64,000 nt of DNA from a virus. Positions 46,637 through 46,984 of the stretch are shown piece after piece; within the stretch, counting starts at the first letter, position 1; each line of letters begins with the position of its first letter. The stretch is taken from positions 1-64,000 of the IMG/VR virus record IMGVR_UViG_3300027850_000003; one strand, written 5' to 3'. Position numbers and translations under genes: made by a program. A model generated the notes under the pieces. That model was given only the letters and a program-made list of their open reading frames with translations, did not search any database and was not told where the DNA came from.

Positions 46637-46984
46637 TTAGAGGACTGTTAATCCTTCTCTGGAAAGCCGGACACAACTATTTCTGTACTCCTGCAAATTA
46701 ACTGCTGGGAGAGGAAAGAAACCATCATCACCTTTTTTCATCGCTACCACCAACGGAAACCGCCCAGTCAAACCGTGTATAACAGTTACTACCAATACTG
46801 ATAGCGGAGCTAACCCCGGCGACACTATAGTTACATCTTCGCTTCCATCTCCCACTATAGGGGACAAATAGACTATGAGATTTGCCAGAAGATCCGGATC
46901 TTCCAATCTAACATGGAATTGGTGATTGACGTAACCCTCAGCTTCCAATACTGCATTAGGATGAGAAAAATTGATCTTGATCAT
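46637..46984 (-). CDS. Csx15-like protein (CRISPR-associated family)
   Basis: INFSHP N-terminus, PGLAPL...IHGLTGRFP and NLQEYR C-terminus match the Csx15 pattern as recalled. Confidence 0.65.
   Translation of the reverse strand: MIKINFSHPNAVLEAEGYVNHQFHVRLEDPDLLANLIVYLSPIVGDGSEDVTIVSPGLAPLSVLVVTVIHGLTGRFPLVVAMKKGDDGFFPLPAVNLQEYRNSCVRLSREGLTVL

Follow-up and report, generated by a model that had tools for sequence, protein, structure and literature searches.

A short phage-encoded Csx15-like protein is a candidate cyclic oligoadenylate-depleting anti-type III CRISPR factor

We analysed the first 64 kb (64,000 nucleotides, hereafter the window) of a linear viral record of 129,969 bp from IMG/VR (IMGVR_UViG_3300027850_000003), which is 42% complete according to CheckV. 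A gene on the minus strand of the window encodes a protein of 115 amino acids (aa) that, by its sequence, is a shortened and divergent member of the Csx15 family, for which binding or cleavage of cyclic oligoadenylates (cOA) was first demonstrated in 2026. With a probability that we put at about 0.6, the protein is a cOA-depleting anti-type III CRISPR factor acting like Csx15. Homology to solved Csx15 structures, a predicted fold and dimer, and the conservation of functional residues are described below, together with a CRISPR array of the cyanobacterium Microcoleus anatoxicus in which three spacers encode pieces of this protein family. The gene is:

46637..46984, minus strand: Csx15-like gene, 115 aa, open reading frame (ORF) starting with ATG; candidate viral cOA ring nuclease or sponge

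The protein is a short member of the Csx15 family

The protein contains four motifs, NFSHP (residues 5–9), PGLAP (56–60), HGLTGRFP (70–77) and NLQEYR (96–101), all of which a preliminary description of the gene had read in the translation (the last as NLQ.YR). Across 27 relatives with 59–100% identity, N5, F6, S7, H8, P56, G57, L58, H70, G71, G74, F76, P77, L97, Q98, R101 and R106 are invariant and R109 is nearly so. On this sequence comparison, the four motifs are real features of a Csx15-like family rather than products of chance.

The NCBIfam model CAS_Csx15 (NF040560) matches the protein with an E value of 7.6e-8 and 32.6 bits, covering residues 49–102 only, which is significant though below the curated cut-off. 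The same model gives 28.5 bits in a six-frame search of the record and is matched by 40 of 40 members of a wider alignment (A2), with a best E value of 1.8e-19. The Csx15 model of PADLOC also matches (E 4.5e-6). No Pfam family was found for the protein at E ≤ 10, DUF1874 (AcrIII-1) included, and no PHROG. Homology over the full length of characterised Csx15 proteins is revealed by a family profile of 60 sequences (A3), which was used for comparison with chains of the PDB and for structure prediction. This profile matches the solved Csx15 chain 9tet_A with an E value of 5.6e-15 (profile 5–114, chain 12–132) and 9teu_A with an E value of 3.4e-8 (profile 4–112, chain 13–138), as well as the Csx15 domain of the Schlafen fusion CbCash (9ylu, E 1.3e-3).

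AlphaFold2 (AF2) reaches a pLDDT of 55.6 with the shallow alignment of 27 sequences, and a pLDDT of 95.2 and a pTM of 0.85 with the 60-sequence A3. The predicted structure is a β-α Rossmann-like domain, in which a central β-sheet (strands 2–5, 51–54 and 78–80) and a β-hairpin (82–85/88–91) are flanked by helices 11–15, 32–44, 59–73 and 97–108, the last being C-terminal. In a structure search of the ESM Atlas, which uses its own model, clusters named 'CRISPR-associated protein Csx15' rank first, with a TM score of 0.76 over 108 aa. The searches of fold libraries show no solved Csx15 chain among the matches listed; Foldseek returns nothing at E ≤ 1e-3, and CARF and SAVED ring nucleases crowd the top matches listed. 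Pam3_gp32 (PF23992), a feature-based lead from the Atlas, was rejected: its score of 0.87 lies under the bar of 0.9, the protein has no Pfam match, and PF23992 is absent from the record at E ≤ 1.

A homodimer is predicted with an ipSAE of 0.79 in three runs, versus 0.00 for the best of three controls; in a calibration, the ipSAE mark was reached by 20 of 30 true homomers and by 1 of 23 single chains. The contacts agree by at least 82% between the runs, and the pLDDT of the partner is at least 84. The predicted interface is formed by helix 55–72 and helix 97–105, with H70 placed against R101 of the partner protomer. The prediction supports dimerisation without demonstrating it.

Residues required for Csx15 activity are conserved

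Csx15 has been described as a dimer that stacks head-to-tail around cyclic tetra-adenylate (cA4) (Chi et al., bioRxiv 10.64898/2026.01.21.700848). In PfCsx15, S9 and H11 of one dimer face H82, R116, R120 and R123 of the next, while in CliCsx15 the H13A mutation abolishes cleavage and H90A abolishes oligomerisation (10.64898/2026.01.21.700848). According to Klimavicius et al. (bioRxiv 10.64898/2026.10.26.761840), H8 is catalytic in HaCsx15 and CsCsx15; in HaCsx15, R125 is catalytic as well, binding depends on R118, both R118 and R125 are required for binding and catalysis, and there is no activity unless the filament forms. 9TET and 9TEU are the Csx15 structures of Chi et al. (10.64898/2026.01.21.700848); because the chain numbering is offset by 7, 9TET would be the Pf and 9TEU the Cli protein. 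The equivalent positions in the phage gene are as follows:

46961..46966, minus strand: codons S7-H8, the 'head' histidine equivalent to the catalytic or binding histidine of Csx15; NxS(G)H motif aligned with 9tet H18 and 9teu H20
46775..46777, minus strand: codon H70 of the HGxxGxFP motif; aligned with 9tet H89 (Pf H82) and 9teu H97 (Cli H90); invariant
46658..46684, minus strand: R101...R106...R109, the C-terminal 'tail' arginine triad on helix 97–108; R101 aligned with Pf R116

In the A3 profile alignment, and with the numbering offset of 7, S7-H8 corresponds to Pf S9/H11 and Cli H13; the pair is invariant in the 27-member alignment (A1) and nearly invariant in A2. R106 and R109 are one position off Pf R120 and R123, the spacing being R-x4-R-x2-R in the phage protein versus R-x3-R-x2-R. 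The conserved head histidine, central histidine and tail arginine triad of Csx15 are therefore all found, H8, H70, R101, R106 and R109 being invariant or nearly so, and these residues correspond to those whose mutation abolishes binding or catalysis in the Pf, Cli and Ha proteins. The predicted contact between H70 and R101 of the other protomer fits the published position of the central histidine among the arginines.

The Csx15-like identity given in the preliminary description is thus backed by hidden Markov models, by the profile match to solved Csx15 chains, by the predicted fold and dimer and by the functional residues. Both computational checks that it had proposed bear the identity out, the search with the Csx15 profile through the significant match to NF040560 and the structure prediction through the confident Rossmann-like model and the similarity to Csx15 clusters of the Atlas.

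The gene is conserved and selected in a clade of phages

A search of 5.8 billion proteins retrieved 26 relatives with 59–77% identity, all of them metagenomic. An exhaustive representative search gave 42 matches, among them a looser group of proteins of 114–121 aa (35–48% identity) and a small number of longer proteins that are closer to canonical Csx15; all ten clusters that were looked up consist of metagenome proteins. Close relatives of the csx15-like gene occur on four further IMG/VR contigs. On five further contigs the gene directly follows a homolog of its upstream neighbour at 47078–47491, and it is kept in at least six phage contigs. No member of the wider short-Csx15 group (A4) was found in IMG/VR, and its member P0035 was not found in metagenome contigs.

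The reading frame is intact in 27 of 27 family members, with 35 invariant columns that include the functional residues. Compared with its counterpart on the related contig L011, the gene shows a nonsynonymous divergence (dN) of 0.234 and a synonymous divergence (dS) of 1.58. The resulting dN/dS of 0.15 indicates purifying selection. The neighbouring genes of L011 share 81–100% aa identity with those of the window, and the Csx15-like protein only 69.6%. Since the dS of 13 flanking genes is 0.10–0.64, that of the csx15-like allele being 2.5 to 15 times as large, the allele is much older than its surroundings, which points to cassette exchange.

The preliminary description had regarded the gene as a captured host regulator, for which we find no support. 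The A3 profile, which scores 145 bits on the phage itself as a positive control, detects no Csx15-like gene in 301 sampled cyanobacterial genomes, and none was found in the genome of M. anatoxicus. In 79 Microcoleus genomes the motif pattern occurs only once, in DNA coding for PGLAPLSVLV, and this occurrence is a spacer of the M. anatoxicus array in genome G001. Capture from the host is unsupported because no such gene was found in any of these genomes. A scan of 185,579 species genomes for the pattern gave two apparent cellular relatives, L006 and L007, both of which were rejected as homologs: in L007, PGLAPLSVLV is a chance match inside a TetR-like ORF, and L006, a contig of M. anatoxicus PTRS2, carries a CRISPR array and no such gene.

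Spacers of Microcoleus anatoxicus match the gene

The array occupies 578–10205 of the 10,206-bp L006 contig and consists of 126 copies of a 36-nt repeat, as read on L006 GTTTCCATTCAATTAGTTTCCCCAACGAGTGGGGAG, and 125 spacers of 33–57 nt. The repeat occurs 226 times in the M. anatoxicus genome and is present in 20 of 31 sampled genomes of the genus. Three spacers, sp93, sp95 and sp100, encode pieces of the Csx15-like protein family. The translation of sp93, PPGLAPLSVLVIVAIHG, is identical to residues 56–72 of the family member P0024 at 17 of 17 positions, and that of sp100, TGYFPQVVSMAKGEDG, is identical to residues 73–88 of P0013 at 14 of 16. The equivalent stretches of the window are:

46772..46822, minus strand: stretch equivalent to the sp93 protospacer (codons 55–71); 34 of 51 nt identical to the window allele
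46719..46768, minus strand: stretch equivalent to the sp100 protospacer (codons 73–88), directly abutting the sp93 target; 31 of 50 nt identical to the window allele
46963..47005, minus strand: stretch equivalent to the sp95 protospacer (21 nt of 5´ leader and the first seven codons, MIKLNFS); 24 of 43 nt identical, nearly all of them in the coding part

Nine spacers match the 130-kb record at the protein level better than any reversed-peptide decoy (best decoy E 4e-5). Together with sp100 and sp95, 11 of the 125 spacers align to the record at 56–85% DNA identity, with mismatches mostly at third codon positions. Their targets are a 972-aa ORF at 52–55 kb, the RNA ligase gene, the csx15-like gene and five ORFs beyond the window. 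The 11 matching spacers indicate that the strain has repeatedly met relatives of the phage, which supports a cyanobacterial host. Three of the 11 fall on 369 bp of a record of at least 130 kb; the chance of finding two more there is about 3.6e-4, a value that allows for the array having been found through the csx15-like gene.

The array spans nearly the whole contig, and an A>G variant distinguishes two repeats at one of its ends. Just outside this end, at 4–288 of L006, lie three tandem copies of a 95-nt unit (100, 84 and 66% identity).

The candidate host carries a signalling type III-B module

A type III-B module of M. anatoxicus is located on a 10.3-kb contig and comprises Cas10/Cmr2, Cmr3, Cmr4, Cmr6 and a Csm6-like CARF protein. 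Cas10/Cmr2 (1042 aa) scores 157.5 bits against a cut-off of 79.4 bits and has an intact GGGDD cyclase motif. The CARF protein matches TIGR02672 with an E value of 6.4e-29, which is sub-threshold, and the Csm6 CARF family of Pfam with 20.1 bits. Neither Csm1 nor a SMODS cyclase (PF18144) was found in the draft genome. The spacer matches and the Cmr/Cas10(GGDD)/Csm6-like module together agree with the preliminary description, which had pointed to cyanobacteria, where type III systems are common: the host is probably such a cyanobacterium. At 9184–10326 of the module's contig (L025, C220), an ORF divergent to cas10/cmr2 has a weak, sub-threshold match to the WYL domain (18.2 bits) and may encode a regulator of the module.

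In the complete genome of a congener (G319), an array with a repeat of the same family lies downstream of a Cmr-like operon, at a distance of about 470 bp; the operon shares the gene order and encodes a Cas10-like protein, Cmr4 (96.8 bits) and a Csm6-like protein. The crRNAs (CRISPR RNAs) of the phage-matching spacers would be antisense to mRNA in 7 of 11 cases, which is no bias (p 0.27), and no consistent protospacer-adjacent motif (PAM) is seen beside the 11 target sites. Because neither strand bias nor PAM types the array, the assignment of the repeat to type III-B comes from its adjacency to the operon in G319. Transcription of the array in the direction of this operon would yield crRNAs of sp93, sp95 and sp100 that are complementary to the csx15-like mRNA, as type III requires. 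The Cas10-like protein of G319 (L027 7894–9513) has only 539 aa and, at 63.9 bits, is sub-threshold for Cmr2; the G319 module may be a reduced variant.

Proposed function and alternative explanations

The following mechanism is proposed. The Csx15-like protein would form a homodimer, and when the Cas10/Cmr2 of the host type III-B module makes cOA, the dimers would stack head-to-tail around it, with S7/H8 of one dimer opposite H70 and the R101/R106/R109 cluster of the next. The cOA signal would then be cut, as by a ring nuclease, or held, as by a sponge; the Csm6-like CARF effector of the host would never be switched on, and the phage would blunt type III immunity. In this scheme we infer the cOA binding, the filament formation, the cleavage or sequestration and any effect on CRISPR immunity. 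Csx15 proteins described in the literature neutralise cA4-dependent immunity in Escherichia coli (Chi et al. 10.64898/2026.01.21.700848).

Several observations weigh against this interpretation. Concerning the family assignment, the NF040560 score of 32.6 bits is under the curated NCBIfam cut-off of 35 bits, so that the protein is not an 'equivalog' by the rule of NCBI even though the match is significant. The homodimer is a predicted one. In this clade the NxSGH motif is missing its Gly, and an additional residue separates the first two arginines; the active site could be altered by either change. Of the two solved chains, 9tet is the one closer to the family profile, and by residue numbering it is the catalytically inactive PfCsx15. 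Concerning the host, the link comes from one genome, in which the array and the cas10 module are found on separate contigs, no repeat being present on the cas10 contig C220. The spacers are only 56–85% identical to the record, which means that the phages met by the M. anatoxicus strain were relatives of this phage rather than the phage itself. Finally, both preprints consider Csx15 ill-suited to viruses, because turnover is slow and sponging would be overwhelmed by type III output (10.64898/2026.01.21.700848; 10.64898/2026.10.26.761840). The existence of a conserved and selected viral clade argues that at least the short form suits viruses.

Published Csx15 proteins include both ring nucleases and sponges (10.64898/2026.01.21.700848; 10.64898/2026.10.26.761840), and PfCsx15 is catalytically inactive although it keeps the functional residues (Chi et al. 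10.64898/2026.01.21.700848; Klimavicius et al. 10.64898/2026.10.26.761840). Because PfCsx15 has the same residues as the phage protein, and because the profile is nearer to that chain, the sequence does not discriminate between nuclease and sponge. 'Ring nuclease or cOA sponge', as the preliminary description put it, is the appropriate level of claim.

The protein could instead be a phage-side sensor or a housekeeping nucleotide-binding protein, which, for example, senses host cOA or a different nucleotide to tune the phage programme, perhaps with the product of 47078–47491, without neutralising immunity. Such a role would suit a protein that consists of a binding domain without an effector module and whose gene is adjacent to a 47078–47491 homolog in six of six loci, and 25% of Csx15 proteins are found in genomes without type III systems, as stated in the accessible part of a 2024 preprint. 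We regard it as quite unlikely: there is no variation at the residues that cOA binding and catalysis require, the 47078–47491 product shows no partner domain of a DNA-binding or enzymatic kind, and the adjacency is weak evidence, being seen only among related phages.

A second alternative is that the protein depletes other cyclic oligonucleotides instead of or besides cOA, such as the trinucleotides (e.g. 3´3´3´-cAAG) of the cyclic oligonucleotide-based antiphage signalling system (CBASS), and is an anti-CBASS or broad-spectrum factor. CsCsx15 and HaCsx15 cleave 3´3´3´-cAAG and 2´3´3´-cAAA in vitro, and a broad spectrum is suggested by the authors as a possibility for viral homologs (10.64898/2026.10.26.761840); the structural neighbours of the phage protein include CBASS SAVED sensors. 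This explanation appears very unlikely, as the draft M. anatoxicus genome yields no SMODS match (PF18144) but does encode a GGDD Cas10 and a Csm6-like CARF protein, and published genomics ties Csx15 strongly to Cas10 and weakly to CBASS (10.64898/2026.10.26.761840). That the gene is a hitch-hiking or decaying passenger of a recombination hotspot near homing endonucleases, with no current function, is hardly credible: the stretch at 46.1–48.0 kb is locally variable and close to a GIY-YIG gene, and the dS of the allele (1.58) far exceeds that of its flanks (0.10–0.64), but the low dN/dS, the frames intact in every member, the 35 invariant columns and the retention of the gene in at least six phage contigs argue otherwise.

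Among these explanations we prefer that of a cOA-depleting factor directed against type III immunity. A further extension, which is speculative and in our view unlikely, is that the short Csx15 proteins are a purely viral lineage at the centre of a three-layer arms race with Microcoleus, in which the phage quenches type III-B signalling, the host keeps several type III spacers that pair with the anti-CRISPR mRNA, and the phages escape by swapping whole alleles.

Comparison with Csx15 and other viral factors

The phage protein resembles Csx15 (NF040560; PDB 9TET, 9TEU) in its profile homology over the full length, the Rossmann-like CARF/SAVED-like fold, the predicted symmetric homodimer, the His of NxS(G)H, the His of HGxxGxFP and the C-terminal Arg triad, and in being a stand-alone single domain. 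It differs in length, with 115 aa compared with the 125-position NCBIfam model and solved chains of 139–146 residues, which would include about seven extra N-terminal residues. It is also below the curated cut-off, with the Gly of NxSGH deleted and an extra residue between the first two Arg. Unlike Csx15, it is encoded by a phage with no cas10 nearby, the short clade has no cellular member in the genomes searched, and its cOA activity is putative.

A viral Csx15 (vCsx15, 'AcrIII-3') has already been proposed as a viral ring nuclease from sequence and structure alone (Klimavicius et al., 28 Oct 2026, 10.64898/2026.10.26.761840), and the protein described here joins this known kind, being likewise a Csx15 homolog in a viral genome from a metagenome with a function proposed from sequence and structure. 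As far as the accessible text goes, Klimavicius et al. give one named viral homolog (from a Lokiarchaeota virus metagenome-assembled genome) and 'over 20' metagenomic ones, none of them assayed, call viral Csx15 rare and mostly confined to prophage regions, and used only high- and medium-quality IMG/VR records (10.64898/2026.10.26.761840); Chi et al., in the accessible part of theirs, did not see Csx15 in phage genomes (10.64898/2026.01.21.700848). Unlike the prophage cases, the present record, 42% complete by CheckV, has no integrase match and the look of a virulent-type cyanophage. New are the cyanophage clade, the altered motifs, the candidate host with a signalling type III-B module and the host spacers on the gene itself, although Figure S8 or the tables of Klimavicius et al. 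may already list the protein or its relatives. A preprint on lytic Microcoleus phages of about 230 kb does not mention Csx proteins, ring nucleases, anti-CRISPR factors or type III systems in its accessible part (10.1101/2023.04.12.536658).

Other viral factors are more distant. The protein has no sequence relation to DUF1874 of AcrIII-1, and the viral SAVED ring nuclease AcrIII-2 (PDB 9R8S) is a two-lobed SAVED monomer, in contrast to the single Csx15 unit of the phage protein, which must dimerise. The phage sponges Acb2 and Tad1/Tad2 act on CBASS and Thoeris signals. Their folds are unrelated to that of the phage protein, and a mode of sequestration such as that shown for PfCsx15 may be shared.

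The protein thus adds a well-populated and strongly conserved clade of viral Csx15 (27 sequences) in large cyanophages. A phage with the csx15-like gene and the toxin-producing mat former M. anatoxicus, with its type III-B module and spacers, form a candidate natural pair. With this pair the 'AcrIII-3' hypothesis can be tested directly in a defined system, and such a test also bears on the argument that Csx15 works too slowly to be of use to a virus. The spacers moreover offer a case in which the CRISPR memory of a host is directed against a gene suspected of anti-CRISPR function.

The carrier phage and the neighbourhood of the gene

The window contains genes for phage replication together with a portal-like gene, and the csx15 homolog is thus part of a bona fide viral genome, as the term 'phage-encoded' in the preliminary description implied. 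These genes include:

15730-19182, minus strand: ribonucleotide reductase of class II (B12-dependent), interrupted by an intein that bears a LAGLIDADG homing endonuclease domain
19902-22031: family A DNA polymerase (PolA)

Further genes encode an AAA_25 primase/helicase-like protein, an exonuclease, an RNA ligase and a portal-like protein, and on a relative contig a 2000-aa tape-measure gene lies near the csx15-like gene. The carrier looks like a large virulent-type tailed cyanophage. No tyrosine integrase (PF00589) was found in the record, which is a fragment and hence no proof of a virulent lifestyle. Megablast of 12 kb and tblastn of the protein gave no match among 50,697 phage records; for PolA, the nearest named phages are Nodularia phages, with only 24.8% identity.

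The preliminary description had noted no cas genes and no array. A search of the whole 129,969-bp record for Cas10, the only cas family covered (TIGR02578, TIGR02577), and a k-mer scan for CRISPR-like regularly spaced repeats both gave nothing, so that the statement stands for the array and, among cas genes, for Cas10. The genomic association of Csx15 with the Cas10 of type III CRISPR-Cas is accordingly missing from the record, as expected for a viral copy.

The csx15-like gene is embedded in a long run of genes on the minus strand, and next to it neither a promoter nor a terminator stands out from chance. Rfam detects no family at 46400–48400, and according to ARAGORN the window contains no tRNA. 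Upstream of the gene, the intergenic gap at 46985–47077 (minus strand) holds a T-arm-like stem-loop, GAGGG-TTCGACT-CCCTC on the coding strand, which is kept in the relative L002. Two of the neighbouring genes are:

47078..47491, minus strand: conserved upstream neighbour, 137 aa, with an internal duplication of a unit of about 68 aa; no Pfam, PHROG or Atlas match
45064..45879, minus strand: GIY-YIG endonuclease-like gene, two genes downstream, a mobile-element neighbour; PF01541 E 2.6e-7, PHROG endonuclease

A homolog of 47078–47491 lies directly upstream of the csx15-like gene in six of six related loci examined, a linkage that may merely reflect shared phage ancestry. Relatives carry single-unit versions (about 68–89 aa) of its 137-aa product. 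The next gene beyond it (47620–47991, minus strand), for which no family or fold was found, is represented by two to three tandem paralogs in L003, L004 and L011. The 271-aa product of the GIY-YIG gene corresponds to no more than a portion (168 aa, 76%) of a 594-aa ORF of L011 (9232–11016). The identity to this close relative dips locally at 46.1–48.0 kb, and the GC content is 35–41% at 46001–58000, compared with 28–35% in the replication block at 4–46 kb, which suggests that 46001–58000 is a mosaic, exchange-prone region.

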